This document shows, one piece after another, positions 1 through 54,199 of a stretch of 64,000 bases of DNA. The stretch is from assembly GCA_017502865.1 (NCBI GenBank), contig JAFVUD010000005.1:144007-208006 (forward strand), given 5' to 3'. Numbering within the stretch: position 1 is the stretch's first letter; every line of letters starts with the position of its first letter. A program made the translations under genes and the position numbers. The notes below the pieces were generated by a model, which saw only the letters and a program-made list of their open reading frames with translations, was not told where the DNA came from and did not search any database. The DNA is from Alphaproteobacteria bacterium (GTDB lineage: Bacteria > Pseudomonadota > Alphaproteobacteria > Rs-D84).

Positions 1-444
1 CAAAATGCAGAACTAAACGGCCACACACTGGAACTGATTAATACCGATATCACAACATGGCGAACAAACCGCACATTTGACATCGTCGTATCCAATCCAC
101 CATATTTTCGTGGCAATCCCGCCACACATAACGCCCACCATAACGCAGATCTGCCAACATGGGTACGCCGCTGTGTTGCCCGAACCAAACCGAACGGATA
201 CTGCTGCTTAATCAGCGATGCCACAACATTGGCCACAATCATATCCAACATGACACACGCATGTGGCGATATTACAATTATCCCACTATTTGGTGCAAAA
301 AATACCGCAGAACGTGTACTGATACGGGGTCGGGTCGGGTCGCACGCTGGCACAACATTACACCAGGGCATACCTATGAATCAGGAAGCCATTTTGCGTG
401 ATGGCTTGACTATTGCAGATGTTTTGTCTAAACTGTTTCCATAA
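1..444 (+). CDS. SAM-dependent methyltransferase, C-terminal part (5' end outside window)
   Basis: Frame 1 is open from base 1 to TAA at 442-444. The translation contains FDIVVSNPPYF, the NPPY catalytic motif of N6-adenine/N5-glutamine type methyltransferases. The stop overlaps the next ATG (TAATG). Confidence 0.6.
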   Translation, partial: QNAELNGHTLELINTDITTWRTNRTFDIVVSNPPYFRGNPATHNAHHNADLPTWVRRCVARTKPNGYCCLISDATTLATIISNMTHACGDITIIPLFGAKNTAERVLIRGRVGSHAGTTLHQGIPMNQEAILRDGLTIADVLSKLFP

Positions 445-1724
445 TGTTAAACTTTATAACACGATATTTTACATCGCTGTGGGCGTTTATCACATCACCA
501 TTCCGTGCCATTTGGCGCGTGATTTCGCGTGTATTTCCACCACGTGAATTCACGGTTATGGACACCCCCCGTGGCAATGTTTACACATTCAAACAAAGCA
601 GTTTTTGGCGTTTTACACGTTTTTGCGGTAAAATAGGGCTGTTTGTCTGGGCCGCCTGGTCAACATACGTATTTGTATATCATCGTCCATTATTACAAAA
701 ACGCACCCAGCAATTGGACGAAACACGTGCCACACACGCACGCCATATGACTGATTTACAAACATACCTGACCAAATATAACGAATTAACACGCAACCTG
801 AACGTCATTGATGACAAGATTTTAAACTCTAAAAAACTTGACGACAAAGAACGCGAAAAATTAATGAACAGCCGTGTTAAAACCTGGGGTGAACTGGACT
901 TTCTGCGTACACGCATTACCGAAATGTTCACAGACGAAGATTATGCCCCCGAATACACAAAATTATCAGAATTATCTATCGAATACGAATTAACCCGTGC
1001 CGAAAACGAAGGATTAAAAAAACGCAACAATCAAATGTTGGAATCCATGGCAGAAATCACCGCCGCCGACAGCCAGATTGTAGAAGCCGTCGCCACATTA
1101 ACAACCCAAAACACCGAAGAACTACGCCAAAATATCAAAAAGATTAAAGGCACAATCGCAACACTGGGTTTATCTGAAACCACATTAATAAACAAAGCCA
1201 ACAAATATTCAAATCCACTGGTTGGCACTGCGTATAACCCATTGGATTTCGATGGCAAAATCGATGAAAAATACCAAAAATTGGCAGACGGTCTGGAATT
1301 ATGGCACGGTCTGAAACGCCTGAACGATGTATTACCACTGGGGGCCCCATTGGATAAAGTTCGCATTACATCAAATTTCGGCACCCGTAATGACCCATTC
1401 ACAGGCAAACCTAAAAAACACCGTGGCATCGACTTTGCCGGCAAAATCGGCACCGAATTAAAGGCCGTTGCCCCTGGTCGTGTTGTATCCGCCGGTGACC
1501 GTGTTGGGTATGGCACAACGGTTGAAATTGACCACGGATTGGGCTTTACAACATTATACGCCCACCTGTCACAAATAACGGTTTCACGTGGGGACTGGGT
1601 CCGTCCTGGCACTGTAATCGGGCTTGGCGGGTCATCTGGCCGTTCAACTGGCCCACACTTGCACTATGAAATCAGATACAAGGGCTCACCATTTGATCCA
1701 ACAAAATTTGTAAAGGAACAATAA
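444..1724 (+). CDS. M23 family metallopeptidase (murein endopeptidase-like) with N-terminal TM helix and coiled-coil
   Basis: 426-aa ORF. The C-terminus carries the M23 motifs HRGIDFAG...GYGTTVEIDHG...YAHL...GSSGRSTGPHLHYEIR. Confidence 0.85.
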   Translation: MLNFITRYFTSLWAFITSPFRAIWRVISRVFPPREFTVMDTPRGNVYTFKQSSFWRFTRFCGKIGLFVWAAWSTYVFVYHRPLLQKRTQQLDETRATHARHMTDLQTYLTKYNELTRNLNVIDDKILNSKKLDDKEREKLMNSRVKTWGELDFLRTRITEMFTDEDYAPEYTKLSELSIEYELTRAENEGLKKRNNQMLESMAEITAADSQIVEAVATLTTQNTEELRQNIKKIKGTIATLGLSETTLINKANKYSNPLVGTAYNPLDFDGKIDEKYQKLADGLELWHGLKRLNDVLPLGAPLDKVRITSNFGTRNDPFTGKPKKHRGIDFAGKIGTELKAVAPGRVVSAGDRVGYGTTVEIDHGLGFTTLYAHLSQITVSRGDWVRPGTVIGLGGSSGRSTGPHLHYEIRYKGSPFDPTKFVKEQ

Positions 1725-2945: not shown

Positions 2946-5345
2946 TTACTTTTTAACCACAAAGTTAACCAGCTTCTTTGGCACCACAATCGTTTTAATG
3001 ATTTGTACACCATCTAACTTATTGGCGACCACTTCTTTGGCACGGTTAACAATAACTTCTTCTGTGGCATCAACCGGTACAACAAATTCTGCCGCACGTT
3101 TACCATTAACCGACGCAACAATTGTCATTTCCGTTTCAACCAACTTAGCGGCATCAAACGTTGGCCACTGCGTCATCGCCAGCAATTCTGTATGCCCCAA
3201 TTTTTCCCACATTTCTTCGGTCAAATGTGGTGCAAATGGGTTCAACACCTGCAACAGCACTTCATACGCTGGCCGTGGCATTGTGCCATTAAACGCATTG
3301 ACATATTCCATCATCGCAGAAATAGTCGTATTGTATTTCATATTTTCAATACGTTCTGTCGCATCTGCAACCAATTTATTCATCAAGCGTTCTTGTTCCT
3401 GACCCATTTCATCATCTGTCAAATTATCGGCCATATTTTCCACACGTTTCAAGAAACGCTGAACACCCGCCAACGCACCTTCGGACCAGTTCACATTCGA
3501 ATCCCATGGCCCCAGTGACAACACCGTTGTACGTGCTGCGTCTGCACCAACTTCGGCAATTTTTTCATCTACCTGGAAACCATTCCCCGCAGATTTAGAC
3601 ATCTTTTTACCATCTGTCCCCATCAGCAAACCGTTCGTAGTACGTTTTTTGTATGGTTCTGGGGTGTTTACATGGCCCAAATCATACAACGCACGATGCC
3701 AGAAACGTGAATAAATCAAATGGCGTGTATTGTGTTCATTTCCACCATTATAATGGCCAACCGGCATCCATTTTTCCATCTGGGCACGTGAACAGAATTC
3801 ATTATCATTCTTTGGATCCAGATATCTCAAGAAATACCAAGAAGACCCCGCCCACTGTGGCATAGTATCTGTTTCACGTTTTGCCGCCCCACCACAATGT
3901 GGACATGTTGTATTCACCCAATCGGTCGCACGTGCCAATGGCGATTCACCATCTTCGGTTGGTCTAAAATCTTCCATATGTGGTTGCATCAATGGCAATT
4001 CAGATTCTGGTACCGGCACCCATCCGCATTTTTCGCAATACACCAACGGAATTGGTTCGCCCCAGTACATCTGACGTGAAAAACCCCAATCGCCCATGCG
4101 ATAGCGAACCTTGGGTCGTGCAAAGCCACCTTGTTCACCAACTTTGATTGCGGCGGCAATCGCATCGACCTTGTTCATGCCGTCCATAAATCCAGAATTA
4201 ATATGTTCACCATCTTCTTCCCACGCAGCCTGTGAAATATCACCACCGGCCAACACCTGAATAATTGGCAAATCAAACTTCTTGGCAAATGCATAATCAC
4301 GCCCGTCATGCGCCGGCACCGCCATAATCGTACCATGTGCATAATTCACCAGCACATAATCTGCCACGAACACAGGAATTTCAACACCTGTGAACGGATT
4401 TTTTGCCATAATCCCTTCCAGGCGAACACCTGTCTTGTCCTTGGTCGCATCTGTTCTGTCAAATTCAGACTTTGCCGCAGATTCCTTGATATACGCACGA
4501 ACTGCATCTGCATTTGTAATCTTGCCTTCATCCAACCATTTGGCCAGCAATTTATGTTCTGGGGCAATTGCACAGAATGTCACCCCAAATATTGTATCAA
4601 CACGTGTGGTATAAACCGTCATAATATCATCACCAACACGGAAGTCCACATCTGCCCCGGTTGAACGCCCAATCCAGTTTATCTGGTCACGTTTTACCTT
4701 TTCCGGATAATCAACAATATTCAACCCGTCCAGCAATTTATCTGCATACTTGGTAATCGCCAGGTTCCATTGCATTTTTTCACGCACTTCTACATCACCA
4801 TGACAGCGATTACATTTTCCATCTTCCAATTCTTCATTGGTCAGTGTTGTCCGGCACTTTGGACACCAATTCATTGGCAGCATCGATTTATATGCCAACC
4901 CTGCATTAAAGAACTGAATAAACATCCACTGGGTCCATTTGATAAATTCTGGATCCGATGTTGCCACCTGGGCCGACAAATCAATAGACCAACCCATATC
5001 CAACATATTTTTTGTAAATTTCTTGGCCAAATCACGAACAACAACCGATGGATGCTGGCCGATTTTGGTCGCATAGTTTTCCGCAGAAATCCCCAGTGAA
5101 TCAAACCCCAATGGGAACAAGACATCAAACCCCTGCATACGGCGAAAACGTGCCATAACATCACAACCTGTATAATTCAACATATGTCCACCGTGCAAAC
5201 CGGTACCCGATGGAAATGGAAATTCCGCCAACATATAGAAAGGCTGCTTTGAACCATCATTTTTTGGTGTAAAAACACCAGATTCTTGCCATTTTTTCTG
5301 CCATTTTGCTTCACGTTCGTGAACTTTCTTGATATCTTCTGCCAT
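2946..5345 (-). CDS. leuS: leucine--tRNA ligase
   Basis: 799 aa with the class I aaRS motifs HGGHMLNY (HIGH-like) and KMSKS, plus the LeuRS-type CP1 and zinc-binding region. Confidence 0.95.
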   Translation of the reverse strand: MAEDIKKVHEREAKWQKKWQESGVFTPKNDGSKQPFYMLAEFPFPSGTGLHGGHMLNYTGCDVMARFRRMQGFDVLFPLGFDSLGISAENYATKIGQHPSVVVRDLAKKFTKNMLDMGWSIDLSAQVATSDPEFIKWTQWMFIQFFNAGLAYKSMLPMNWCPKCRTTLTNEELEDGKCNRCHGDVEVREKMQWNLAITKYADKLLDGLNIVDYPEKVKRDQINWIGRSTGADVDFRVGDDIMTVYTTRVDTIFGVTFCAIAPEHKLLAKWLDEGKITNADAVRAYIKESAAKSEFDRTDATKDKTGVRLEGIMAKNPFTGVEIPVFVADYVLVNYAHGTIMAVPAHDGRDYAFAKKFDLPIIQVLAGGDISQAAWEEDGEHINSGFMDGMNKVDAIAAAIKVGEQGGFARPKVRYRMGDWGFSRQMYWGEPIPLVYCEKCGWVPVPESELPLMQPHMEDFRPTEDGESPLARATDWVNTTCPHCGGAAKRETDTMPQWAGSSWYFLRYLDPKNDNEFCSRAQMEKWMPVGHYNGGNEHNTRHLIYSRFWHRALYDLGHVNTPEPYKKRTTNGLLMGTDGKKMSKSAGNGFQVDEKIAEVGADAARTTVLSLGPWDSNVNWSEGALAGVQRFLKRVENMADNLTDDEMGQEQERLMNKLVADATERIENMKYNTTISAMMEYVNAFNGTMPRPAYEVLLQVLNPFAPHLTEEMWEKLGHTELLAMTQWPTFDAAKLVETEMTIVASVNGKRAAEFVVPVDATEEVIVNRAKEVVANKLDGVQIIKTIVVPKKLVNFVVKK

Positions 5346-7056: not shown

Positions 7057-7308
7057 TTATATATTGCTATAACCTGCCGTTTTCCGCCACTTTTTATCCC
7101 ACCCATTACACAACAAATAATTATTTATAATTTCGGTACAGCACTTATATTTTTTATAATTCATCACCTAACCCAGACCACCTGGACCATCGGGTTCGCC
7201 TATTGTACCCGCACAATACCTTTACACACCCGTATTACTCAAAAACAACACCCCGCATATCCATCCACACAAAAAATCACCTTTACCCATAAAACACATG
7301 CCCACCCA

Positions 7309-7361
7309 CCCCACCGGACACAAAAAAACACCCGCAAACCCGCAGAAATCCGCTATTTTTT
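7309..7361. repeat. ~52-bp direct repeat, copy 2
   Basis: See copy 1. The copies are 935 bp apart inside the ORF-free region. Confidence 0.8.
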
Positions 7362-7450
7362 ACCAAAAAACCGCCAAAATCCGCCTATTTTACGCCTTTT
7401 TTGCAAACAAACTATACATAATCCACCAACACCAAACATACCATCCGCAA

Positions 7451-7483
7451 ATAAAAAGTGGCGATGCAAATATGCCCGCCACC
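7451..7483 (-). terminator. intrinsic terminator after mscL
   Basis: GTGGCG...CGCCAC stem with a 13-nt loop, followed by TTTTTAT on the minus strand. Confidence 0.6.
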
Positions 7484-7506
7484 TAATTAAATCAATTTGT
7501 CACAAA

Positions 7507-8067
7507 TTACTTTTTAGTCTTTGTAATCTTTTTGATTTTTGAAATCTGACCAGACGCAATTTTAGTCAAATTTTTGATGCCTTTTTCCAATTCGCTATCT
7601 TCTACTTCGCCTGTTTTTACAGGTTCCACAGCCGAACAGCAATGCGGACATTTTGTTGCAGAATTACTAATCGACATCGTGCAATATGGACACGCATGTG
7701 TGTTCGCAGGTTTCTTGCTACGCATTTTATTAACCGTACGCACAAACAAGAATATCGCAAACATAGTAATAAAGAAACTAACCACAGAATTCAGGAACAG
7801 CCCCATATTCAATGTTGTCGCACCTGCTGCCTGGGCGGCTGCAATTGTTTCATAATGCCCACCCGATGGATTATTCAACACAAAGAACCACTGGGAAAAA
7901 TCAACCCCACCTATCAACAACCCAATCGGCGGCATAATAACATCTTTTACCAGTGAATTTACAACACCGGTCATAACACTACCTACGATGATACCGACAG
8001 CCATGTCGATAGCATTGCCACGTTCCACAAATGCGCGGAATTCTTTTAATAAATTGGTCTTAGCCAT
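7507..8067 (-). CDS. mscL: large-conductance mechanosensitive channel MscL with C-terminal CxxC...CxxC extension
   Basis: N-terminus LKEFRAFVERGNAIDMAVGIIVG...PPIGLLIGGVDFS is canonical MscL. About 60 extra C-terminal residues contain CPYC...CPHCC. Confidence 0.85.
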   Translation of the reverse strand: MAKTNLLKEFRAFVERGNAIDMAVGIIVGSVMTGVVNSLVKDVIMPPIGLLIGGVDFSQWFFVLNNPSGGHYETIAAAQAAGATTLNMGLFLNSVVSFFITMFAIFLFVRTVNKMRSKKPANTHACPYCTMSISNSATKCPHCCSAVEPVKTGEVEDSELEKGIKNLTKIASGQISKIKKITKTKK

Positions 8068-8644
8068 TTTCTTTCCTTTTTTCTATATATTCGGTTATTG
8101 CTGCAACAACCTTGTCCAGGGTTTTACGCAGGCTTTCATCACGTGTTTCCACCGTAATATCCGCCAACGCATATGTTTTATAGCGTTCATCAATAAGCTG
8201 CCCCAGGATTTGGCGACTGTCCGCATGCAACAATTGCGGTCGTGTATGCCGAAAATTAGTCCGCTTAACCAGCAAATCTAAATCCGCACGCAACCACACT
8301 GTAATCGCACGCTTCATCACCATTTCACGCACAGCCGGCGTAATAAACGCCCCCTCGCCCGTAGATAAAACCTTTAACCCCGGCCCCGTATCCAACAAAC
8401 GTTCTATAACACGCTGTTCTACACGCCGAAATTCGGTTTCACCATACATTGCAAAGATATCAACCACGCTGCAGCCCGCAGCTGCTTCTATTTCTTTATC
8501 AGAATCAACGAACGGAATCCCCAGCCGCCGTGCCAACGCACGCCCGACACTGGTTTTTCCCGCCCCCATCAGCCCAACCATAACGATTGGCCTGTCTAAC
8601 AAAGATACTATTTCTTTACCCATAACACCCGTTATTCTATACAA
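8060..8644 (-). CDS. aroK: shikimate kinase
   Basis: Walker A motif GLMGAGKTSVGRALA followed by PFVDSDKEIE. The 3' end overlaps the mscL start by 8 nt. Confidence 0.85.
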   Translation of the reverse strand: MYRITGVMGKEIVSLLDRPIVMVGLMGAGKTSVGRALARRLGIPFVDSDKEIEAAAGCSVVDIFAMYGETEFRRVEQRVIERLLDTGPGLKVLSTGEGAFITPAVREMVMKRAITVWLRADLDLLVKRTNFRHTRPQLLHADSRQILGQLIDERYKTYALADITVETRDESLRKTLDKVVAAITEYIEKRKENG

Positions 8645-8769
8645 AAATGCTAAAATTCACAATAAAAATTCGCACAGCCCTGTTTTACCTTTTTATTTTC
8701 AGGATTTTTATGCTATAATATAACTATCAAAAACCTTAATTTAACCCAAAGAACAGAGAGAGAAGCAAA

Positions 8770-9819
8770 ATGAAATCAGCATTCTTTATTGCACCCGCTT
8801 TGATATTCTCTGCTGTCCACGCATCCGATGCCACCGCATCCATGTATGCCAGCACCATATCATCGCACAACATTATGCAAATTCAACACAGTGCACTGTC
8901 AAACGCATTTAATGCATTTGAATCAAACCGCACAACCCCTGCCCCTGCAAAAAAACAGGCAAAACCATCACCTGATCGTTATGGCACAATGTCAATGTAC
9001 GGCGAATACGGCGACGACGGTTCTGTATTCCAGGGCCGCAACGGTGGCGAATCCCCTGCACTGCGTGGCACATGGGCAAATTGGCAGCATACCAGCGACG
9101 ACGTACACTTTAATGACTACGCTGTTGTAGATACGGACACAGACATCATCACATTAGGTCTGGCCGGCGGCAAAAAACGCACTTCACACGGCACAACCGA
9201 ATGGGGCCTGTTCGGCGGCTACTTTAACGGCGACCAGACAACATCCGACACCACCATTGACCAACAGGGTGGCTTTGCCGGTGTTTACAGTGGTTATGCC
9301 CAAAACAACTTCCGTGTTGTCGCTGGCATCTCGGGCGGTGTAATGGATAATGGCGTAGAATTCGCATCTGGCGAAGATTCATTTGTTAATATGTGGGTCG
9401 GCGCCGGCGTTCGTTCAACATACGACATTCCATTGGACTCTACATTTACACTGCGTCCTGGTCTGCAGATTGAATACACTTGGATAAATTCACCAAGTTA
9501 CACTTCTGAATCCGGCATGGATATCGAACCAGACAACTTCAGTGCATTTAACATTGTGCCATCATTCCGTGCAATCAAACACATTGCAAACGGCTGGTAC
9601 GGCAGTGCAAATGTTAAATACGTTGCCACAATCACCCAAGAAGATGCACTGTTCGTAGATTCCGTCGCATTCCCTGCGCTGGAAATCGACAACTATACCG
9701 AATACGGCATCACATTGGAAAAATCGATTGCTGGATTTGACTTTGCCGCCACATTGGCACGCCGCGACGGTGGCCGCTCGGGCTGGCTGGGCCAATTTAA
9801 CATCAAATACGCATTCTAA
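8770..9819 (+). CDS. outer-membrane beta-barrel protein, autotransporter-barrel-like
   Basis: Signal peptide MKSAFFIAPALIFSAVHA, alternating beta-strand pattern, and C-terminal ...NIKYAF ending in an aromatic residue. An RBS-like purine run precedes the ATG. Confidence 0.6.
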   Translation: MKSAFFIAPALIFSAVHASDATASMYASTISSHNIMQIQHSALSNAFNAFESNRTTPAPAKKQAKPSPDRYGTMSMYGEYGDDGSVFQGRNGGESPALRGTWANWQHTSDDVHFNDYAVVDTDTDIITLGLAGGKKRTSHGTTEWGLFGGYFNGDQTTSDTTIDQQGGFAGVYSGYAQNNFRVVAGISGGVMDNGVEFASGEDSFVNMWVGAGVRSTYDIPLDSTFTLRPGLQIEYTWINSPSYTSESGMDIEPDNFSAFNIVPSFRAIKHIANGWYGSANVKYVATITQEDALFVDSVAFPALEIDNYTEYGITLEKSIAGFDFAATLARRDGGRSGWLGQFNIKYAF

Positions 9820-12443: not shown

Positions 12444-13145
12444 CTAAAAATAGCGATGCAATTGCCCACCATTCTGTACCAACCACCGCTTTGCACGTTC
12501 CACACCAAACCCATACAGTTCACGCACATACGCCCAAAATTCTGGCGAATGATTCATATGCCGTACATGTGCCAATTCATGCATAACCACATACCGCATA
12601 ACATCATACGGTGCAAACGCCAATCGCCACGAAAAAGACATTGTCCCCGAACTGGAACAACTGCCCCAGCGACTGGTCGTATCACGAATTGCGATACGTT
12701 TTGGCCACAATTCCGCCGGTGCCGTACGCACAACCGCCTTTAATTCACGCAAAAATTCACTTTTGATAAAATCCCGCACCCGCCGTTCAAACATAGACAC
12801 ATCGCCACCAATAATTAATTTTTCGCCATCATCGCTAAATTTATTTGACCGCAACGCACCATCATGCACCAACACAACCCGTCGCCCCAGAAATTCTATT
12901 TCGTCCCCCGGCACCAATTTTACCTTGGCTGGGGACTTTTCAAATATTTGATTCACCCAACGTGATTTTGATTCTAAAAAGCGTATCGCCGCCGCATTTG
13001 ACACCAACCACGGCTTAGACATACAAATTTCCCGCCGTGGCGACACACGTGGCCGCAGCGTAATATTACGCAAACCACGACGTGTTTGAATTATAACTGG
13101 AATTTCTTCACCACTGGCCAAAACAAAAACAAAATCGTCCGCCAT
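12444..13145 (-). CDS. M48/YgjP-like (DUF45) metal-dependent hydrolase
   Basis: 233 aa with the HELAHVRHMNHS zinc motif near the C-terminus. The start overlaps the tkt stop (TAATG). Confidence 0.75.
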   Translation of the reverse strand: MADDFVFVLASGEEIPVIIQTRRGLRNITLRPRVSPRREICMSKPWLVSNAAAIRFLESKSRWVNQIFEKSPAKVKLVPGDEIEFLGRRVVLVHDGALRSNKFSDDGEKLIIGGDVSMFERRVRDFIKSEFLRELKAVVRTAPAELWPKRIAIRDTTSRWGSCSSSGTMSFSWRLAFAPYDVMRYVVMHELAHVRHMNHSPEFWAYVRELYGFGVERAKRWLVQNGGQLHRYF

Positions 13146-14926
13146 TATTTAATATTCTTTTTCAGCGATTCCGCAATCTTATCCGCATCAAAGCCAAAAT
13201 GTGCATATACTTCTGCCCCTGGGCCCGACACACCAAATTCATCGATACCAACAACCGCATCTGCAAACTCAAACCATGGTGCCGATGCCCCTGCTTCGAT
13301 TACAACGACAAAGCCACGCAAAATTCCCTGCTTATACGCATCTGTTTGCCGCTTAAAATGCCCAACCGATGGCATAGACACAACCTGAATTCCATCGCCC
13401 AACTTTTTTGCAACATCAACCGCCAATGGAACCTCGGCCCCTGTTGCTATAATTGTTGCACGCACACGTCCAGAATTCGCCGGCACTATTACATAGCCAC
13501 CACGACGAACATCCGCCCCACGTGGTGTTTCAATTTGCTTAAACTTTTGCCGTGACAAAACAATCGACGACGGACTGTTGTTATCCTGTAACGCCATTTG
13601 CCATGCAACTGCAACTTCATCTGCATTACATGGACGAAAAACATTCATATTCGGCATTAAACGCAGTGATGCCAATTGTTCAATCGGCTGATGCGTTGGA
13701 CCATCTTCGCCAACTGCAACACTGTCATGCGTTAAAACAAAGATTGACGGTATTCCCGACAACGCCGCCAACCGCATCGCAGGCCGCATATAATCACTGA
13801 ACACCAAAAACGTAGAACCATACGTACGCAAACCGACCGATGAAATTCCATTCATAATCGCCGCCATCGCATGTTCACGCACGCCATAGTTTATATAGTT
13901 TCCATTCCATACCCCCGGCACCACATCAACCGAAGATTCAACACGGCCATTCGTACTGCCACCTAAATCTGCACTGCCCCCAATGATTGGGAAACCTGAT
14001 TTTATAATTTCATTTATATACAACCCCGACAGTTCACGTGTTGACACATCACCCGAAACCGCCGGCATTTTTGCACGTCGCACATCCATAGACGGATTTA
14101 TCATCAACATATCAAAATGATTTTTCGCCACATCCGCCCATAACGATTCGCCCGCCGGACTGATAAATTTATCAATCAATTCAGCCAATTCCGCATCAGA
14201 TAACGCCAAACCATGCGCTTTGTTCTGGCCTGCCAAACTGGAACCAAAACCAATCTGGGTTTTACACTGCACAAAGACCGGCTTTGGCTGATTATTCACC
14301 ACCGCCATTGCACGTGTGATTTGATCGCCTTTTTCGCCATCCACAGTGGTTATTTTCCACCCTGCCGCCATCATTCGTGCTGGAATATTTTCTTCACCCT
14401 GGGTGACACCATCAATCGTCATACCATTATCATCCCAGATTAAGACCAAATTATTTAATTTATACCGCCCTGCGAACGCAATTGCTTCCTGGGCGACGCC
14501 CTCCATCAAATCGCCATCGGAACACAGACAGTACACACACCCGTCTGAATTACGCATTTTTTCTGCCAATGCGATACCAACCGCATTTGCAACCCCCTGG
14601 CCCAGCGGCCCGGTCGTAGCATCAACACCATCAATTCCAAATTCAGGATGCCCAGGCAATCCGCCCATTTTACGGAAAGTCCCCAATCCGTCAATATCAT
14701 ACCCTGCCAAATTCAGCACAGAATATAACAACGCACTGCCATGCCCCGCCGACATAACAAATTTATCGCGTCCAACACGCAGTGCATTTGCAAAAACCGC
14801 TGTAATCGCCGTGGCTGCACCCAATACAATCCCCACATGCCCACTGCGTGCCATACGCAATGCGTGCAGTGCACCCGCCCGCACCGCATTTGCCATTTCT
14901 TTTAAATCTTTGGAATTATAGCTCAT
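13145..14926 (-). CDS. tkt: transketolase
   Basis: Motifs SGHVGIVLG, MSAGHGSALLY, CLCSDGDLMEG and HDSVAVGEDGPTHQP. I chose the ATG at 14926 (MSYNSKDLKE...) because the longer ORF to 15130 adds a Cys/Arg-rich non-homologous extension overlapping rnhA. Confidence 0.9.
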   Translation of the reverse strand: MSYNSKDLKEMANAVRAGALHALRMARSGHVGIVLGAATAITAVFANALRVGRDKFVMSAGHGSALLYSVLNLAGYDIDGLGTFRKMGGLPGHPEFGIDGVDATTGPLGQGVANAVGIALAEKMRNSDGCVYCLCSDGDLMEGVAQEAIAFAGRYKLNNLVLIWDDNGMTIDGVTQGEENIPARMMAAGWKITTVDGEKGDQITRAMAVVNNQPKPVFVQCKTQIGFGSSLAGQNKAHGLALSDAELAELIDKFISPAGESLWADVAKNHFDMLMINPSMDVRRAKMPAVSGDVSTRELSGLYINEIIKSGFPIIGGSADLGGSTNGRVESSVDVVPGVWNGNYINYGVREHAMAAIMNGISSVGLRTYGSTFLVFSDYMRPAMRLAALSGIPSIFVLTHDSVAVGEDGPTHQPIEQLASLRLMPNMNVFRPCNADEVAVAWQMALQDNNSPSSIVLSRQKFKQIETPRGADVRRGGYVIVPANSGRVRATIIATGAEVPLAVDVAKKLGDGIQVVSMPSVGHFKRQTDAYKQGILRGFVVVIEAGASAPWFEFADAVVGIDEFGVSGPGAEVYAHFGFDADKIAESLKKNIK

Positions 14927-14961
14927 GTGTGATATTATATCATAAAAAGGACACATATAAA

Positions 14962-15393
14962 ATGTTAAAAATTTACACAGATGGCAGTTGTTTGGGCAAC
15001 CCTGGCCCCGGCGGTTGGGGCTTTGTCGCCACAGACGGAAAACATACCGCCGAACGCAGTGGCGGCGAATTAAACACAACCAACAACCGCATGGAATTAA
15101 TGGCGGTAATTCGTGCCCTGACTGCGGCAAAAAATCATGACGAATTAGAAATCCACACCGACAGCCAATATGTTAAAAACGGCATGACCACATGGGTCGC
15201 CGGGTGGAAGAAAAACAATTGGCGTACATCCACAAAAAAGCCAGTAAAAAATCAAGACCTGTGGATGCAGTTGGACGAATTGGCATCAACCAAGAAAATT
15301 CATTGGTTTTGGGTACGTGGCCACAATGGCGACGAAATGAACGAACGTGTTGACACATTGGCCCGCACCTTTGCCGAAGGGTTAAAGAAATAA
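14962..15393 (+). CDS. rnhA: ribonuclease HI
   Basis: MLKIYTDGSCLGNPGPGGWG...TNNRMELMA...HTDSQYV...WVRGHNGDEMNERVD. Start taken at the internal ATG at 14962. Confidence 0.9.
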   Translation: MLKIYTDGSCLGNPGPGGWGFVATDGKHTAERSGGELNTTNNRMELMAVIRALTAAKNHDELEIHTDSQYVKNGMTTWVAGWKKNNWRTSTKKPVKNQDLWMQLDELASTKKIHWFWVRGHNGDEMNERVDTLARTFAEGLKK

Positions 15394-15410
15394 CTACCAC
15401 CCACACAAAT

Positions 15411-15438
15411 AAAAAACGCCCCATTCGGGGCATTTTTT
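15411..15438. terminator. bidirectional terminator between rnhA and 15437-16774
   Basis: AAAAAACGCCCC-ATTC-GGGGCATTTTTT. Confidence 0.8.
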
Positions 15439-16774
15439 ATCGCCAAACTTCCGGCATTGTCGAATAATCATCTAAATTGGAACAATTCTGGTACATATTC
15501 TGCACCTGGGCACTGGTTGCATCTGGCCAAATCTCGTACAGATATTGCCCATTTATCTTGGCCGAATCCCCCGTCAAACCTGTACAACCTGTAAACATAT
15601 AAGAAAACGAAGCACTTGCCAAATCACCCGAAATATCACCAAACAAATCATCCGGAATCGATGTCAATTTTGTACACTTTTCAAATGTATAGTTAAACAT
15701 CTTGCCCGCCGGCGCCCCATTAATATTTTTAAACAATCCTGCTGGTATTTCTTCCAGACTGGTACAGTTACTGAATGTATTATTAAACATTTCATACACA
15801 GGATACCCATAAAACGCATCAAACAATCCCTCTGGCAAACGTTTTAAGCCTGTACAACGATTAAACGTACTGGAAAACATTGTATCGGCCGGCTGGCCAC
15901 GCAACCCCGCAAACAAACCCGATGGCAATTCGGTCAGCCCATAACAGTACTGAAATGTACGGCGAAACATTTTTGTTGTCGAATTGCCATAAATCCCCGA
16001 AAACACACCATCTGGTATAGACTTTATGTCTGGATTATGTGCAAAAGTCTGATAGAAACGCGGTTGAGTCCCATCTGACAAAGTACTAAACACACACCCC
16101 AAACATCCTTCAAAAGACGAAATTTTCGGTGTTAGTGTAGCACCACCAAAAAATGACTCTCTAAGCGTTCCTGCAAACGACACCGCCGCGGTTTCATCAT
16201 TTGTACTATACGCAGTCGCATCACCCGAAACACCAATTTTATAATTGCTGGCCGCATCACTGTATGTATGCGAATACGCAGTATCATTTGTATCTGTTTT
16301 ATTTATTACCTGCAAATCACTGCCATCACCCCAATCTATTACATAATCCCCCGCCGCACTGATATTAAATGAAAAACTTGTACTGGTCCCCGCCGGCGTA
16401 ATCCAGAATTCCGGCACATGCGTAACCGTTCCATCATCGCCGCCCTCTTCTTCATCTACGACCGTCTTTTTAATCAGCCTGTTTACTGCATCTATCGCAG
16501 CAATCGTATCAACCGCATCCAACGTTGCAAATTCACTGTTTGCATAATCCGTTGTTGCAATACCATTTAATTTTTTATTCGCAATATCAACCGCCGTCAG
16601 CAAATATTTCATATTTACCGCCGCACTGGGACTGTCCAGATGGGTATTATATTTAACGTCAACCTGATGTTCACGACTGATTAAATTATGTAAATATTGC
16701 ACATTTATCAAATCGCCTGCATAAACAGACGCATTACCAAACAACGCCAATAAAAATATCATCAAATATTTCAT
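15437..16774 (-). CDS. secreted repeat protein, single-unit member of the PKD-like + 30-aa LFAG/MF/TF/C repeat family (BspA/LRR-like logic)
   Basis: Signal peptide, then NVQYLHNLI...AVNMKYLLTAVDIAN head, IDWGDG...YSHTY domain, repeats LFAGLRGQPADTMFSSTFNRCTGLKRLPEG, and C-terminus GQYLYEIWPDA...MPEVWR. Confidence 0.8.
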   Translation of the reverse strand: MKYLMIFLLALFGNASVYAGDLINVQYLHNLISREHQVDVKYNTHLDSPSAAVNMKYLLTAVDIANKKLNGIATTDYANSEFATLDAVDTIAAIDAVNRLIKKTVVDEEEGGDDGTVTHVPEFWITPAGTSTSFSFNISAAGDYVIDWGDGSDLQVINKTDTNDTAYSHTYSDAASNYKIGVSGDATAYSTNDETAAVSFAGTLRESFFGGATLTPKISSFEGCLGCVFSTLSDGTQPRFYQTFAHNPDIKSIPDGVFSGIYGNSTTKMFRRTFQYCYGLTELPSGLFAGLRGQPADTMFSSTFNRCTGLKRLPEGLFDAFYGYPVYEMFNNTFSNCTSLEEIPAGLFKNINGAPAGKMFNYTFEKCTKLTSIPDDLFGDISGDLASASFSYMFTGCTGLTGDSAKINGQYLYEIWPDATSAQVQNMYQNCSNLDDYSTMPEVWR

Positions 16775-16783
16775 AAAAATCCA

Positions 16784-17995
16784 TTATTCGGTTGGCAACG
16801 CTGGGGTTGGTACCTTGAACGAACCTGTAACAGTGTAATTACCACCCATCTCATTCGTTCCCGTCTTGCTAACATAGCCCGACATATCCGTAGATTCTGG
16901 GAATTCTGGGATATCCGCCGCCGTAATAAATCCCGAATCGTTGGTCAGTTGCGATGTCTTGGTCGGCACAGCCGGCAATTCACTGGACTTTACATAGCCT
17001 GCATCATTTGTAAATGCTGAAACCGCCGTTGGAACGGTTGGAATTTCAGACTTTAACGCATAATTACCCGCCGCCTGTTTACCTGCAATTTGTGTCGCAT
17101 ATCCATCATATGTTGAAACCTTGGCCGCTGTGATTCCCGAATTTACCGCATTTTGCTGGGCTGCAGTCAATGCATCCTGTTTACCCGACAACGCACTGTT
17201 CATTGCACTGGTTGTTGCATAACCAGACAAAGCCGAATTCGTGATATACCCCGAATCGTTGGTCAGTTCTGAAACCTTGGTCGGAACTGTTGGAATATCT
17301 GTTGTTTTGGCATAGCCTGACAATGCAGAACTGGTAATAAAACCACTGTCATTGGTCAATTGTGACGTTTTTGTTGGCAAATCCGTCTTTAACGCATATG
17401 CCGTCAATGCCCCTGAATCCACCTTACCCGCCAGTGCCGTATTCATTGCACTGGTCGTTGCATAACCACTTAATGCAGCATCGGTAATAAACCCAGAATC
17501 GTTTGTTAACTGTGATGTTTTTGTTGGCAAATCCGCCATTTTTGCATAACCATTTAACGCCGCACTGGTGATATAACCCGAATCGTTTGTTAAACTGGAT
17601 GTCTTGGTTGGCAATTTGTCCGCCGTCACAAATCCCGAATCGTTTGTCAAATCTGAAACCTTGGTCGGCACAGACGGAATATCAATCAATTTTGCATAAT
17701 CATTCAATGCGGCACTGGTAATAAAACCGCTGTCATTGGTCAATTTCGATGTTTTTGTTGGCAAATCCGCCTTTAATGCATAATCACCAACCGCCTGTTT
17801 ACCGGCCAATCCCGTGTTTAATTCATCCTTGGTCGCCAATGAACTGACCTGATTTTGCACGTGCGTATCTACATATTCTTTACTGGTAATCGCAGCAAAG
17901 CCAGGCGTATTAAACACCACCACACATGCGAAAATCCATAAAATCGCCCGCTTAAACGCCACTCTACTCTCCAAACAGCCTACTTTGCTTACCAC
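16784..17995 (-). CDS. secreted fibrous protein with 8 PTKTSxLTNDSGFIT repeats
   Basis: 403 aa. Eight copies of P-T-K-[TV]-S-x-L-T-N-D-S-G-[FY]-[IV]-T alternate with LSGYA[KT] segments. N-terminus has ITSKEYVDTHV and C-terminus has MGGNYTVTGSFKVPTPALPTE. Lies 9 nt upstream of 15437-16774. Confidence 0.75.
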   Translation of the reverse strand: MVSKVGCLESRVAFKRAILWIFACVVVFNTPGFAAITSKEYVDTHVQNQVSSLATKDELNTGLAGKQAVGDYALKADLPTKTSKLTNDSGFITSAALNDYAKLIDIPSVPTKVSDLTNDSGFVTADKLPTKTSSLTNDSGYITSAALNGYAKMADLPTKTSQLTNDSGFITDAALSGYATTSAMNTALAGKVDSGALTAYALKTDLPTKTSQLTNDSGFITSSALSGYAKTTDIPTVPTKVSELTNDSGYITNSALSGYATTSAMNSALSGKQDALTAAQQNAVNSGITAAKVSTYDGYATQIAGKQAAGNYALKSEIPTVPTAVSAFTNDAGYVKSSELPAVPTKTSQLTNDSGFITAADIPEFPESTDMSGYVSKTGTNEMGGNYTVTGSFKVPTPALPTE

Positions 17996-18070
17996 TCATT
18001 ATATCATAAAATCAGTCCACAAACAAGCCACCATTAAGAAAATCGGCCGACATTTTATATCGACCGATTT

Positions 18071-19015: not shown

Positions 19016-19294
19016 TTAACGTCCTTTTATTTTACCCTGCATCCTCTCGTAAAACTTAATTGCATTATCCAGTGCCTTTTCCTGACTAACCAACCCCAGT
19101 TTTTCTTCATCATACCCAAACAAATGCGACTGGGTTCCATGATACTTGTACCGTACACGCACCGTATATCCCAACAACACATGTCCTTTGTCACGATATG
19201 TACGATATTCTGGCCGTGGGAATGCCACAGACACCGGTGTCCAATCAAACGCCTGTTTTATCTTTGTACACAATGCCTTGAACGAAAAATCCAT
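19016..19294 (-). CDS. hypothetical protein, tandem paralog B (GYTVxVRYKYHGT motif)
   Basis: 92-aa ORF, paralogous to 18733-19014. Confidence 0.55.
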   Translation of the reverse strand: MDFSFKALCTKIKQAFDWTPVSVAFPRPEYRTYRDKGHVLLGYTVRVRYKYHGTQSHLFGYDEEKLGLVSQEKALDNAIKFYERMQGKIKGR

Positions 19295-42913: not shown

Positions 42914-42937
42914 CAAAAAACCGCCATATTGGCGGTC
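42914..42937 (-). terminator. terminator after 42943-45027
   Basis: ACCGCC-AATA-TGGCGGT followed by TTTTTT on the minus strand. An identical copy lies at 45352-45375. Confidence 0.8.
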
Positions 42938-45351: not shown

Positions 45352-45375
45352 TAAAAAACCGCCATATTGGCGGTC
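45352..45375 (-). terminator. terminator after 45381-47483
   Basis: Same sequence as 42914-42937. Confidence 0.8.
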
Positions 45376-48778: not shown

Positions 48779-51700
48779 TTAGAAGCGGTAAGAACCTGAG
48801 ACTTTAATATTATGCAACTGGATGGCATCGTTGTATTGATATCTGTAATCAACACCAATTTGAATGCCGGTTGCGGAAATCAGTTCAAAACCACCACCAA
48901 TATTTGCCCACAATGGATCAATATCCAATGCATAGTCGGTGAACGAATGGGCCGGACCAAATTTATATTGAACCTGGTCTGGGGCACCCAGAACATCATA
49001 TTCGACACCAATCGATGCATATGGTCTGATTTGGAACCATGCTGTTGGATAGATGCGTTTCTGGGCCGTTAATGTGTACCCAGGGGTCAACATCAAATAG
49101 CCATCTGATTCCATATTCATGTAATCGCCACTGCCGGCGGTTTCATCAACACTGAAACCAAAATTATAACCAACACGTGCATACAGATTTCCAACGATAT
49201 ACTGGTTCAACCAATCGTGCATCAACCCCCATTCAGATGTCAATGCCAACGCCATACCATCACCATCGATTGTATCCATGAAATTCATGTTTCTGTCTGT
49301 ATCTAACATATGGATATCCAAGAACGCATTTCCATACGCACGCACAGAATTAGTCAATGTTTTAGCCAAATAACCGCCCAGGCCGATATTTGTATCTGTG
49401 ACGGACACAGAAACATTTCCTTGTTCTGTGATGGCACCATAACTTAAATCCATAGAATCTGAATTATCGCTGGACATATGTGAAACACGACCTGTCAACC
49501 CCAGAATCAGTGTTTCAGATTCCTGCCAGTCAAATCCACCGGCAACACTGAAACGATTTCCACCAACACGTTTGTTATCTGTCACATTCTGGCGGAACAT
49601 ACCATAGTCAACATCAACCCATGCTTTTTTCAAACTGCGGTTTCTGTTCCAGATAAATTCATCCATCATGCGATCTTCGAAATCACGGAACGATGTATGT
49701 TCATTCAACATAACTGCACCCGCAATTTGTTCGATTTCACGTGGCTGAACCAATCTGCTGAATCGTGCCAATGGTGCACCTTCGGCATTGGCAACATAGT
49801 GTTCCATACGATTGTACAATTCATTTGCCAATTTAGACATATCTGTCCCTTCGAACAACAATGGAATCACTTCAATTGGCGTACTGTTAAAGAATCCCTG
49901 ATTAACCAATTGACCATCCAACAGATCGTCCAACGCACCGGCCGCCATATATTCACCATCTGTATGATCTGGTTCACGGCCAACAATTGGCTGGATACGC
50001 ATATTTTCAATCAAAACAGGGCCACCAAAGCGTGGATCAAACACGACATACAAACTGTCATTTTCACCATTTGCATCCGCATCACGAACCGAGATATACG
50101 CCGGCAATTCTTCGCCCGATTTATTATTCGCATCAATCGCATCCAGATAGTTAAAGCATTTTGAACCATCTGCATTACAGAACATAACTTCCAGATTGCG
50201 AACCTTGGCCAATGCATCAAATTCTTCGATACCATCTTTGGCGTTTAACAACCAAATCGCAGTACCCTGGTCAACGGCATCAAATATATTAATACCGATT
50301 TGTGAATCCGCCAACTGAACTTCTTTGTTACCCAAATTCAGCCCAGAATCATATACTTTACCCGATATAAATTTGCCATTAACCGAAATCATTGGTTCTG
50401 CATCGGCTGCATTTGTGATATCACCCAGTGTATCATCTTCGGCCAGGCTGACGGTTGCCCAATAATTCTTGGCACTGGAATTCATTGTGGTACCATCTGC
50501 ATATTTCAAGATTGCAACATTCAATCGGCTGTTTTCATCAAATGTATAATTACCACCAATACTCATTTGTTCCAGACCGATAAAGTCAACCCCACCTGAA
50601 ACATCACCACCAACCGACACATCCATCCAGTTTGCATATGGCGACGCAACAAATGCTAAATCAACTGCATCTATGCTGCCAGAAACATCAATATCACTGC
50701 TGTTCACAACCATTGTCCCAGATTTCTGGTCAATCGCCCCAACATTCATATTAGATGTATTTATAACATAATCAGATGCCGCCACATTTACATCACGACT
50801 GGCCAATGTACCTGCATAATTTTGATATAATGTACCATCGGTTGTAAATGGTGTTGCCAAATCCAATCCAGCCCCAGACAACTGAATCATACCATCGTTC
50901 ATGGCCAATGAATTCATTGTTATAAACCCATTACCCGAACCAATATACAACGTACCATTATTCGCAACATCTGCGAAATCAGCAGATTCCTGGGCAAATA
51001 TTGCCAAAGAACCGCTGTTTTCCAAATTCTGCGACGCAAACGATTTCGCATTTACCATCACGCCGGCACCATCTGCCACAGAAACATTACCAACAACATT
51101 GAATAAATCTGTAATGTTATATGAAACCGTATTTTCATCTGCGACAAAATTACCACCAATGTTCATACTGGCCGCCTGAACACTTGATTCATCGGCTGTC
51201 AAATTCAGCATACCATTTTTAGCAGTACCCTGGTTCAAATCGCCTGCAACGCTAATATCGCCACCGACGATTGTGCGTTCCGCATCAATATTTGCCCCAC
51301 CCCCAGACACTGTCAAACCATATGAAACATCGAATTGTTTTGCATCAACCGACACTAAACCACCCGTTGATGTAATTGAATTCGCAGACACATTGTTGGC
51401 ATTTGCTGTAAACGCACCACTGTTTGTCACATTTTCAACAGACACCGCATTTACATTCCCCTGGCCTAACAAAGTTGTCAAACCTGTATTTGTAATATCC
51501 TGGGCGGTTATCATTGTACCCGATGCATACAGCGATCCACCAACCGTTGTATCATTTTTGATATCAACCAATTTATTCGCCACCAGGTTCAATTCACCAC
51601 CTGCATCAATCAAGCCAGAAACATTGATATTATTCGCAGATTTCAATGTTAACCCGTCACGTGTTGCCGCCATAACTGTAATACCACCGGCAACATCAAT

Positions 51701-54088: not shown

Positions 54089-54199
54089 TTTTTTCTTTTT
54101 CTGTTTTATTTCCAATCCGATTGTGTTTATATTATACCGCAAAATGAATTTAATGCAAAGGTAAACTGTGCATAAACTCATTATTATTTATCAAAGTAA

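Follow-up and report, generated by a model that had tools for sequence, protein, structure and literature searches.

A conserved gene pair encoding candidate parts of a variable surface fibre in genome-reduced alphaproteobacteria of the order Rs-D84

Related repeat proteins and phage fibres

The described proteins closest to those analysed here are of the BspA/PARCEL type, whose canonical repeat is 25 residues long (PMC2996958). Repeats of this type are found in signal-peptide-bearing surface proteins of small-genome, host-associated microbes, and in phage proteins. A second relative is gp231 of Escherichia phage ukendt (Phapecoctavirus, YP_009986904.1), an 890-aa protein annotated only as "tail protein", whose gene lies beside those of a tail fibre and a depolymerase. 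A third point of comparison is given by the long tail fibre of phage T4 (gp34-gp37), a multi-gene phage fibre, and by fibritin, with its C-terminal foldon.

Here we analysed a 64-kb stretch of DNA (the window) from an alphaproteobacterium of the order Rs-D84, Candidatus Enterousia group, in which small genes are followed directly by large genes encoding repeats of this kind. The genomes of Enterousia/Rs-D84 are smaller than 1 Mb and lack the TCA cycle and respiration; these organisms, proposed to be partner-dependent, are widespread in animal and human guts (PMC12306168).

The large proteins share with the BspA/PARCEL type the tandem variable repeats, the hydrophobic skeleton F..C..L..IP..LF.GI, the predicted solenoid and the occurrence behind a signal peptide. 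They differ in their period, which is 30-31 residues, in line with the 30-aa repeat originally read, against about 23-26. Their repeats moreover have a set place, behind a conserved head and a PKD-like domain and ahead of a conserved C-terminal cap, and their genes have a dedicated small partner, for which BspA and PARCEL proteins offer no described counterpart. As for gp231, residues 274-445 of the 445-aa large protein align to its last 160 residues, up to the very C-terminus (33% identity, 175 columns, E 4e-19), and in both the same repeats and cap form the C-terminal part of a fibre-like protein. The solenoid and cap are thus homologous to the distal end of the Phapecoctavirus tail protein, and the large family also matches phrog_9915. 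In contrast, gp231 is a part of the virion, without signal peptide, conserved helical head or PKD-like domain in a matching arrangement.

The pair resembles T4 gp34-gp37 and fibritin in the idea of a fibre whose parts come from neighbouring genes, a short connector among them and a receptor-binding protein at the far end, and phage fibres more widely in its "A[ST]xxYVD" helical units, short C-terminal oligomerisation caps and variable shaft between conserved ends. No sequence or structure match to the T4 long tail fibre or to fibritin was found, and unlike them the paired proteins are Sec-exported and cellular, with a trimeric state that is presumed.

Gene pairs, operon signals and pairing across genomes

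The original prediction described three minus-strand gene pairs in the window, and an ORF check found all of them with intergenic gaps of 9, 14 and 6 nt (Table 1). The count of three stands for the pairs, but the window holds two further members, an orphan small gene and a giant large-family ORF. The upstream frame of the first pair is open to 17995, as first given, but its start is most likely GTG 17962, since an extended -10-like element occupies about 18008-17998 and since both the called gene and the homologues, P0344 among them, begin MAFKRAIL. The giant protein has the same head, followed by a module of PKD-like domain, 30-aa repeats and C-terminal cap that occurs about 5-6 times in tandem; there is no small partner upstream of its gene, where the neighbour is rho. 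Downstream of the orphan small gene there is no large-family gene, and a convergent leucyl-tRNA-synthetase-like gene is found instead. At the nucleotide level, the 694-aa and 700-aa genes share 80-91% identity across head, PKD region and C-terminal cap, and their central repeats share 54-65%.

Table 1. Members of the two families and associated signals in the 64-kb window
Feature	Position	Strand	Remarks
Pair 1	17995-16784 / 16774-15437	-	gap 9 nt
Pair 2	45287-45042 / 45027-42943	-	gap 14 nt
Pair 3	47711-47490 / 47483-45381	-	gap 6 nt
Long small-family gene, 392 aa from GTG 17962	16784..17962	-	small HMM E 6e-12
Large-family gene, 445 aa	15437..16774	-	downstream partner of 392-aa gene
Small-family gene, 73 aa	47490..47711	-	small HMM E 6e-31
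Large-family gene, 700 aa, ~12 repeats of 29-41 aa	45381..47483	-	
Small-family gene, 81 aa	45042..45287	-	small HMM E 5e-26
Large-family gene, 694 aa	42943..45027	-	tandem paralogue of 700-aa gene
Giant large-family ORF, 2279 aa	34650..41489	-	likely start ATG 41462
Orphan small-family gene, 78 aa	2627..2863	+	small HMM E 1e-24
Extended -10-like element TATGATATAAT	17998..18008	-	consensus match, function inferred; 5' of long small-family gene
Intrinsic terminator, GCCCCGAATGGGGC then T-run	15410..15431	-	directly 3' of 445-aa gene
Intrinsic terminator hairpin ACCGCCAATATGGCGGT then T-run	45358..45374	-	3' of 700-aa gene
Intrinsic terminator hairpin	42920..42936	-	3' of 694-aa gene; identical to hairpin at 45358-45374

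Each pair is predicted to form a bicistronic operon in the order promoter, small gene, large gene, terminator. Direct reading revealed an extended -10-like element of one type 5' of all four small-family genes in the window, the orphan included. A strong Shine-Dalgarno site precedes the small genes, again including the orphan, and a weak one or none precedes the large genes, which follow at gaps of 6-14 nt; translation of the large gene is apparently coupled to that of the small one. Beyond the terminator of the 694-aa gene lies the rho promoter, a perfect TTGACA-17-TATAAT at 42905-42877.

To see how far the pairing extends, 47 loci from other Rs-D84/Enterousia genomes were fetched with the large family only, yielding 44 assessable large genes; a small-family gene lay directly upstream on the same strand, at a gap of 1-53 nt, in 28 of these. 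Among 11 small genes looked up independently, ten had a large-family gene directly downstream, and between the remaining one and its large gene stood another small gene. The adjacency is thus far above chance, and the juxtaposition proposed as conserved from the window, with the caveat that it might be missing elsewhere, is borne out in these genomes. Same-strand pairing persists from genus to genus and in many housekeeping neighbourhoods that are unrelated to one another; the neighbours include rho, ssb, ftsJ, RNase H, ribosomal protein genes, smpB and dnaK, and the positions are syntenic between genomes. No conserved third gene was found beside the pairs in at least 15 loci, and no natural small-large fusion occurred among 240 retrieved homologues. 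A metagenome scan with the small family yielded a single locus.

About one third of the large genes have no adjacent small gene, among them the giant gene of the window and all copies sampled in the MAGs CATNBF01 and JAAVBP01. As the heads of unpaired large genes are indistinguishable from those of paired ones, the small protein is unnecessary in cis, and perhaps altogether. Unpaired large genes and the orphan small gene would be natural if the two were independent secreted or surface proteins, merely co-regulated, with the small one a separate surface or periplasmic peptide and the adjacency a product of cassette co-duplication; the correlation of evolutionary distances reported below is explicable by linkage in that case too. 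We nevertheless regard independence as quite improbable, given a near-universal same-strand adjacency that holds at gaps of 1-53 nt across genera and unrelated neighbourhoods, a small gene that is almost never seen without a large gene downstream, and a large gene that often lacks its own ribosome-binding site.

Architecture and turnover of the two protein families

The small protein measures about 45 aa when mature. The 73-aa member has a signal peptide, DLAGTQYVEE and, further on, NQTMAGTYTVTGTFDVPTQPLPTSVANTAAE, and the 392-aa member a signal peptide, the N-cap ITSKEYVD, about 8 tail-fibre-like PTKTSxLTNDSGFIT repeats and the C-cap MGGNYTVTGSFKVPTPALPTE. The C-terminal motif first noticed in the upstream proteins, M[AG]G.Y.V[TS]G.[LF].V[PA]T..LP, is present in all three; the family-specific consensus of this C-cap is NQTMAGTYTVSGTLxVPTPPLPxAE, and it always occupies the extreme C-terminus, even in members without the YVD N-cap (L030, P0311 and P0332). 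The head motifs assigned to the two partners are likewise present, but with minor departures, namely TQYVE in the third small protein and LINVQYLH and AVNMKYLL in the 445-aa protein. The small protein also carries one helical unit of phage-tail-fibre type, "ASTxYVDxxxxTKVDTS".

In some loci, shafts made of tail-fibre repeats or coiled coil are inserted between the caps. Long variants with the same caps reach 392 aa (window) and 329 aa (L030), and other members range from 120 to 453 aa. At one orthologous locus (FtsJ - pair - RNase H - transketolase) the small protein has 66 aa in one genome and 392 aa in the window, because PTKTSxLTNDSGFIT repeats have been inserted between the same N- and C-terminal caps, an arrangement that agrees with the fibre-like nature ascribed to the upstream family. 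The 392-aa protein is 28% identical to the long tail fibre of Synechococcus phage S-CREM2, and its repeats match PHROG.

AlphaFold2 (AF2) modelling of the small-protein monomer from a 72-sequence MSA gave a pLDDT of 64 and a pTM of 0.22, with one helix at residues 25-41; the low confidence points to the lack of a stable monomer fold, as expected of an obligate oligomer or a partner-binding peptide. An exhaustive HMMER search of 1.84 billion representatives with the small-family profile returned only 138 matches. Nothing significant was found for the small family in the PDB or for its consensus by tblastn in phage genomes (50,697 phage records); the small protein falls within no described family. 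Among the profile matches, the long ones made of several stretches (P0318, P0351 and P0369) are spurious and reflect LVIVD-type and SprB-like Thr/Gly-rich repeats, and P0322 and P0337 share only the generic fibre unit "LASTxYVD..VSGK.DTS".

These properties bear on whether the small protein could be an assembly or export helper, that is, a secreted foldon- or fibritin-like oligomerising peptide that aids folding, export or attachment of its large partner, to be released afterwards or to remain apart. It is tiny and better conserved than any other part of the cassette. Its gene, with a strong Shine-Dalgarno site, is translated before the large one, which appears to be coupled to it, and the modelled monomer suggests no stable fold; the many large genes without an adjacent small copy would fit a factor acting in trans. 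On the other hand, fibrous inserts of 120-450 aa between the same caps are hard to square with a pure chaperone, the small protein resembles no chaperone family, and the chaperones of phage tail fibres usually have their genes behind that of the fibre, which together make the helper role unlikely.

Behind its signal peptide, the 445-aa large protein has a helical head at about residues 21-105 and, beyond a disordered linker, an Ig/PKD-like sandwich at 123-223; at least four 30-aa repeats and a C-terminal cap follow. Its AF2 model (pLDDT 88, pTM 0.76) has an all-beta sandwich at 123-223 and ends in a solenoid cap. The WGDG...YSHTY motif is invariant. Structural superposition places the modelled repeats in a predicted LRR/BspA-like solenoid fold, and a Foldseek search against BFVD returned phage proteins named LRR, BspA family or 26-residue repeat (probability 1.00, E 7e-13 to 2e-5) as well as phage proteins named "PKD domain-containing". 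Matches to LRR proteins of the PDB were weak (E 4e-3 by fold; E 3e-3 to FLS2 by sequence), and the full AF2 model gave nothing significant against the PDB.

For the leucine-rich repeats, profile scores stayed below the curated thresholds. The LRR_5 model (threshold 27.7 bits) gave 11.2 bits for the 445-aa protein (E 0.36) and no match for the rest of the window proteins, and among 60 family members two reached E<=0.01, the best at 26.4 bits. For TIGR02167 (cutoff 30 bits) only the 445-aa protein matched, at 29.2 bits, and the DUF285 Pfam model matched none of the window proteins or of the 60 family members. The PKD Pfam models had no match at E<=1 in the window proteins, but among 60 homologues PF00801 was found in 18 and PF18911 in 10 at E<=0.01 (best 3.4e-7). 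Taken with the AF2 model, the Foldseek matches and the near-cutoff TIGR02167 score, these PKD matches uphold the view that the downstream protein is variable and joins an Ig/PKD-like domain to a solenoid of BspA/LRR_5/DUF285-like kind. As neither family reaches the threshold of any described one, the original view that they cannot be assigned also stands, and nothing found places both families in already characterised systems. LemA (PF04011) matches in 9 of the 60 large-family members were discarded as spurious, being sums of short in-repeat matches with no single stretch above threshold.

The head of the large family is about 85 aa long, strongly conserved and built of three strand-helix units; a head-only profile search returned only short fragments, mostly from contig ends. 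A head motif common to both families had been proposed. hhalign aligned the two with 83% probability (E 1e-5), but over a span that joins signal peptide and head, and a PSSM of the small N-cap scored large-family heads about 1.3 sd above shuffles, so that any similarity of the motifs is statistically weak.

Mean pairwise distances were 0.39 for the small protein, 0.44 for the head, 0.52 for the C-terminal cap and 0.59 for the PKD-like domain. Distances between small proteins track those between heads (Mantel r 0.39, p 0.006) and not those between PKD-like domains (r -0.05), a correlation that could reflect physical linkage in a recombining cassette. At the orthologous locus described above, the large proteins share 38% identity, as against 94% for FtsJ and 90% for RNase H; evolution of the cassette far outpaces that of the flanking genes.

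A candidate surface fibre and its meaning

In alignments, both families have n-h-c signal peptides that end in AxA-type sites. Neither protein contains a recognisable outer-membrane anchor or translocation domain, and Autotransporter and YadA-anchor Pfam models matched neither family. Nor does the locus resemble a chaperone-usher or pilus system, for want of a conserved third gene in the 15 or more loci compared, and the sole pilus-type match, over the Ig-like domain, was to CPR_pilus_PamR and reached 16.7 bits where the cutoff is 300. That the proteins are exposed on the surface of a diderm cell is accordingly an assumption. A 349-aa autotransporter beta-domain protein is encoded separately in the window, at 8770-9819.

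The reading we favour, to which we give roughly an even chance, is that the two proteins of a pair are exported by Sec and together build a variable adhesion fibre on the surface of a gut alphaproteobacterium that has a reduced genome and probably depends on partners. As a minimal stalk or adaptor of this fibre, lengthened in some loci by the long shaft between its caps, the small protein would probably form oligomers and attach by its C-cap to the conserved head of the protein whose gene comes next. The large protein would be the binding component, with the Ig/PKD-like domain as a spacer followed by the solenoid of 30-31-residue LRR repeats, which varies in length and sequence, and the conserved cap, and one end of the fibre would presumably be anchored.

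The same resemblances to phage could point to the pairs being remnants of a prophage, tailocin or gene-transfer agent, that is, tail-fibre genes of a phage-derived particle: the distal module matches a Phapecoctavirus tail protein and the large family phrog_9915, the long form of the small family resembles a cyanophage long tail fibre, and the Foldseek matches are mainly phage proteins. However, both proteins bear Sec signal peptides, which virion proteins lack, no other phage genes lie nearby, the neighbours are housekeeping genes syntenic between genomes, each pair has its own promoter and terminator, and the small consensus matches nothing in the phage records searched. A prophage origin of the loci was rejected on gene context and signal peptides, and the remnant reading as a whole is very improbable.

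A bolder version of the adhesion fibre, speculative and on balance doubtful, is a cell-borne attachment organelle in the style of a phage tail fibre. A trimeric mini-stalk, in some cases extended by a shaft of tail-fibre or coiled-coil type, would plug by its C-cap into a single-chain, pseudo-threefold head, formed by the three YVD-like strand-helix units and tipped by a hypervariable LRR region for receptor binding; with a set of such fibres the cells would latch onto specific partner cells, a phage receptor-binding architecture domesticated for episymbiosis.

Large-family genes alone take up about 12 kb of the window (about 19%), and other MAGs hold at least 6-7 copies, which amounts to a major investment for a minimal genome. 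As a simple marker, the two HMMs could serve to annotate several hundred "hypothetical proteins", and the large family has its distal module in common with phage proteins of receptor-binding type. If the pairs are adhesion fibres, the partner of about 45 aa would be a new and very compact fibre-assembly element, and the pairs themselves would be obvious candidates for the determinants of partner or host specificity in Rs-D84/Enterousia.

Organization of the gene pairs in the window

Three minus-strand pairs had been described, each with a gene for an EYV-head / VPTPxLP-tail protein (small family) immediately upstream of one for a protein with a PKD-like domain and 30-aa repeats (large family); all six ORFs are present, with gaps of 9, 14 and 6 nt. 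In the alignment, the three upstream proteins have a signal peptide followed by a YV[DE] unit, and all three carry the reported C-terminal motif M[AG]G.Y.V[TS]G.[LF].V[PA]T..LP. The copy number of three requires extension, as the window also holds an orphan small gene and a giant large-family ORF, and the start codon of the long upstream gene is probably GTG 17962, yielding 392 aa, because an extended -10-like element lies ahead of it and both its homologues and the gene call begin with MAFKRAIL.

Ahead of each of the four small genes lie an extended -10 element of the TnTGATAnAAT type and a strong Shine-Dalgarno site of the GGAG type. The paired large genes begin 6-14 nt beyond the small gene, their own ribosome-binding site being weak or absent, and a canonical intrinsic terminator lies directly 3' of each of these three large genes. 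A pair is therefore a promoter - small - large - terminator unit, and from these consensus matches we infer that each is transcribed as one. Beyond the terminator of the 694-aa gene lies a perfect TTGACA-17-TATAAT promoter, positioned ahead of rho. The giant ORF is directly downstream of rho, which is thus sandwiched between family members; it contains one head (the conserved N-terminal ~85 aa of the large protein) and then ~5-6 tandem modules of PKD-like domain, 30-aa repeats and C-terminal cap, the last with ~19 near-perfect repeats. The orphan small gene has no large-family gene downstream, only a converging leucyl-tRNA-synthetase-like gene; its product could serve unpaired large proteins, for example the giant, in trans.

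Elsewhere in the window, an 1800-aa signal-peptide protein (no Pfam match at E<=1e-5) ends in ...YRF, as in an outer-membrane beta-barrel, and a separate 349-aa protein combines an Autotransporter beta-domain with a short passenger. The two proteins point to the presence of an outer membrane, and each is a potential anchor for other surface proteins. Two adjacent paralogous ORFs with a shared core (...GYTV.VRYKYHGT...) and no family match lie between ftsJ and a gene for a stand-alone protein whose sole match is the SRP54 M domain (SRP_SPB), without an NG domain; uvrA is the next gene upstream of the latter. The paralogues are called genes in loci L001/L002 and are absent from L053, the locus syntenic to the FtsJ - RNase H site, which has the same short SRP_SPB form (173 aa). 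Most genes are on the minus strand, and plus-strand GC skew is uniformly and strongly negative (between -0.04 and -0.45 in each 2-kb interval; 44% GC).

Features of the window and segments of the modeled large protein
Feature	Position	Strand	Remarks
Small/large pair, 392/445 aa	17962-16784/16774-15437	-	
Small/large pair, 81/694 aa	45287-45042/45027-42943	-	Tandem
Small/large pair, 73/700 aa	47711-47490/47483-45381	-	Tandem
Extended -10-like element TATGATATAAT	~18008-17998	-	Ahead of the 392-aa gene
Identical terminator hairpins AAAAGACCGCCAATATGGCGGTTTTTT, also written ACCGCCAATATGGCGGT	45358-45374 and 42920-42936	-	After the tandem 700-aa and 694-aa genes
TTGACA-17-TATAAT promoter	42905-42877	-	
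Orphan small-family gene, 78 aa	2627-2863	+	Promoter-like element and Shine-Dalgarno site as in paired genes
Giant large-family ORF, 2279 aa	34650-41489	-	Family N-terminal head at start
1800-aa protein	48779-54181	-	
349-aa protein	8770-9819	+	
Paralogous ORFs, 92-93 aa	18733-19014 and 19016-19294	-	
SRP_SPB protein, 177 aa	19298-19831	-	
Transketolase	13145-15130	-	
AF2 model, three strand-plus-helix units	residues 22-100		
AF2 model, linker	residues 106-119		Disordered
AF2 model, sandwich	residues 123-223		All-beta
AF2 model, solenoid	residues ~230-445		

Pairing and divergence across genomes

A profile search returned >600 large-family homologues, all annotated 'hypothetical' and originating from uncultured Alphaproteobacteria MAGs. 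The small family is narrow by sequence search: searching exhaustively with HMMER gave 138 matches among 1.84 billion representatives (credible ones 50-453 aa), and a word-indexed search gave ~400, all from Alphaproteobacteria MAGs, all unnamed and mostly 62-105 aa. As the original prediction had been unable to place either family, so the small family and the pairing were without a match in Pfam, NCBIfam, PHROGs, PDB and the literature searched.

Scanning one genome per GTDB species yielded 47 loci, from Candidatus Enterousia and from gut MAGs related to it; every ORF in these loci was scanned with HMMs of both families. The pairing proved to be conserved: 28 of the 44 assessable large genes directly follow a small gene in the same orientation (gaps 1-53 nt), and the unpaired ones were concentrated in a small number of MAGs (CATNBF01, JAAVBP01) and one recurrent locus type. 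Conversely, a large gene lay directly downstream of 10 of 11 small genes found independently, while in the remaining case another small gene came between the two; within the window itself the figure is three of four. Locus L061 has two tandem small genes (3504-3701, 4001-4198) ahead of one large gene, and L015 (1906-7069) one 122-aa small gene before two large genes. Neighbors vary (ftsJ/RNase H, iPGM/L25, L13/S9, smpB, dnaK/L19) and no third conserved gene was found beside the pairs across the loci compared, so the pair is a module complete in itself, at chromosomal positions that are stable and syntenic, and its identification as a mobile element or prophage was rejected.

FtsJ and RNase H, which flank the pair, are 94% and 90% identical to their L053 counterparts, whereas the large protein is only 38% identical and the small partners differ by a 326-residue insertion. 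The two tandem pairs are mosaic: their nucleotide identity is 80-91% across the head/PKD region and at the C-terminal cap, falls to 54-65% over the central repeats, and is ~50% between the small genes. Diversifying selection or recombination would be expected to leave such divergence and mosaicism in surface proteins. Unlike FtsJ and RNase H, the nearby transketolase is just 64% identical to its L053 counterpart (7178-8959); the region beside the pair may have been exchanged along with it.

Architecture of the two proteins

The 445-, 694- and 700-aa proteins align end to end, the first being 39-40% identical to the others, and the proposed ~30-aa repeat has a measured period of 30-31 residues, compared with a canonical ~25 in known repeat families (PMC2996958). 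No window protein reached threshold in Pfam, and TIGR02167 ('26-residue repeat', PARCEL) scored 29.2 bits against a cutoff of 30; PKD models match 18 of 60 large-family homologues. An AF2 model built on a 60-sequence alignment was confident (pLDDT 88, pTM 0.76), and PDB searches gave no match below E 4e-3. Structurally the repeats belong with BspA/LRR_5 and DUF285/PARCEL proteins, although they miss the sequence thresholds of those families. The head is the best-conserved part (AQIVNVEYIHNAIxQKWDITVPYN...AANMKYLLTAVDVANEILNG...YAT..AADT).

Among specific relatives, the distal module is closest to the C-terminal end of gp231, a Phapecoctavirus tail protein: residues 274-445 of the 445-aa protein (repeats and cap) match the extreme C-terminus of this 890-aa protein of Escherichia phage ukendt (33% identity, E 4e-19). 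The gp231 gene adjoins those for a tail fibre and a colanic-acid depolymerase, so a fibre-type phage protein carries the same module at its distal end. That the pairs are phage or tailocin remnants is nevertheless highly improbable, as it conflicts with the signal peptides and with the gene context.

The mature small-protein consensus is DIASTxYVxxxxxTKVDTSAxANQTMAGTYTVSGTLxVPTPPLPxAE, with the C-cap at the extreme C-terminus in every case. Longer members place fibrous material between the two caps: eight PTKTSxLTNDSGFIT repeats in the 392-aa protein (28% identical, across 81% of its length, to the long tail fibre of a cyanophage), coiled-coil heptads in L030 and other repeats in the homologue P0353. 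The FtsJ - pair - RNase H - transketolase locus carries this 392-aa member in the window and a 66-aa one in a related genome. The N-terminal unit is also repeated many times in the fibre-like proteins P0322 and P0337, and the long members L030, P0311 and P0332 lack the YVD N-cap yet keep the C-cap, which is therefore the defining element of the family. The AF2 monomer model was poor (pLDDT 64, pTM 0.22; a single helix at residues 25-41), as would fit a peptide that needs an oligomer or a partner in order to fold.

Relation between the partners and possible function

The head motif said to be shared by both proteins turned out to be weakly supported: hhalign gave 83% probability (E 1e-5) over signal peptide and head together, and the best matches of a small N-cap PSSM fell mostly in the head, at strand-helix unit 1, 2 or 3, scoring only ~1.3 sd above shuffles. 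A Y-[VIL]-x-x-A-[IV] pattern is common to the N-cap (STxYVDxAV) and head units 1 and 2 (NVEYIHNAI, NMKYLLTAV). Across 29 natural pairs (Mantel Spearman), small-protein distances correlated with those of the head (r 0.39, p 0.006), weakly with the C-terminal cap (r 0.21) and not with the PKD domain (r -0.05); partial correlations were 0.36, 0.12 and 0.05, respectively. Such a pattern would be expected from co-evolving contact partners, and equally from physical linkage in a cassette with a recombining distal part. No small-large fusions were found among retrieved homologues.

The best explanation, to which we give roughly even odds, is that the pairs are a lineage-specific family of bicistronic operons whose products form a variable adhesion fibre on the cell surface. 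Binding would fall to the large protein, which has a conserved head, then an Ig spacer, then a variable LRR tip that also occurs in phage tail proteins; the small protein would serve as a stalk or adaptor, minimal but in some members elongated, and would dock on the head through its C-cap. Against this fibre reading, a third of the large genes lack an adjacent small gene and their heads are nonetheless identical, alike in paired and unpaired genes, and a recognisable outer-membrane anchor or translocation domain was found in neither protein. That the small protein is an assembly or export helper seems unlikely, and that the two are independent and merely co-regulated slightly more so.

Family genes occupy ~19% of the window, and so they are plausible determinants of attachment specificity in a lineage with genomes <1 Mb that is probably partner-dependent (PMC12306168).
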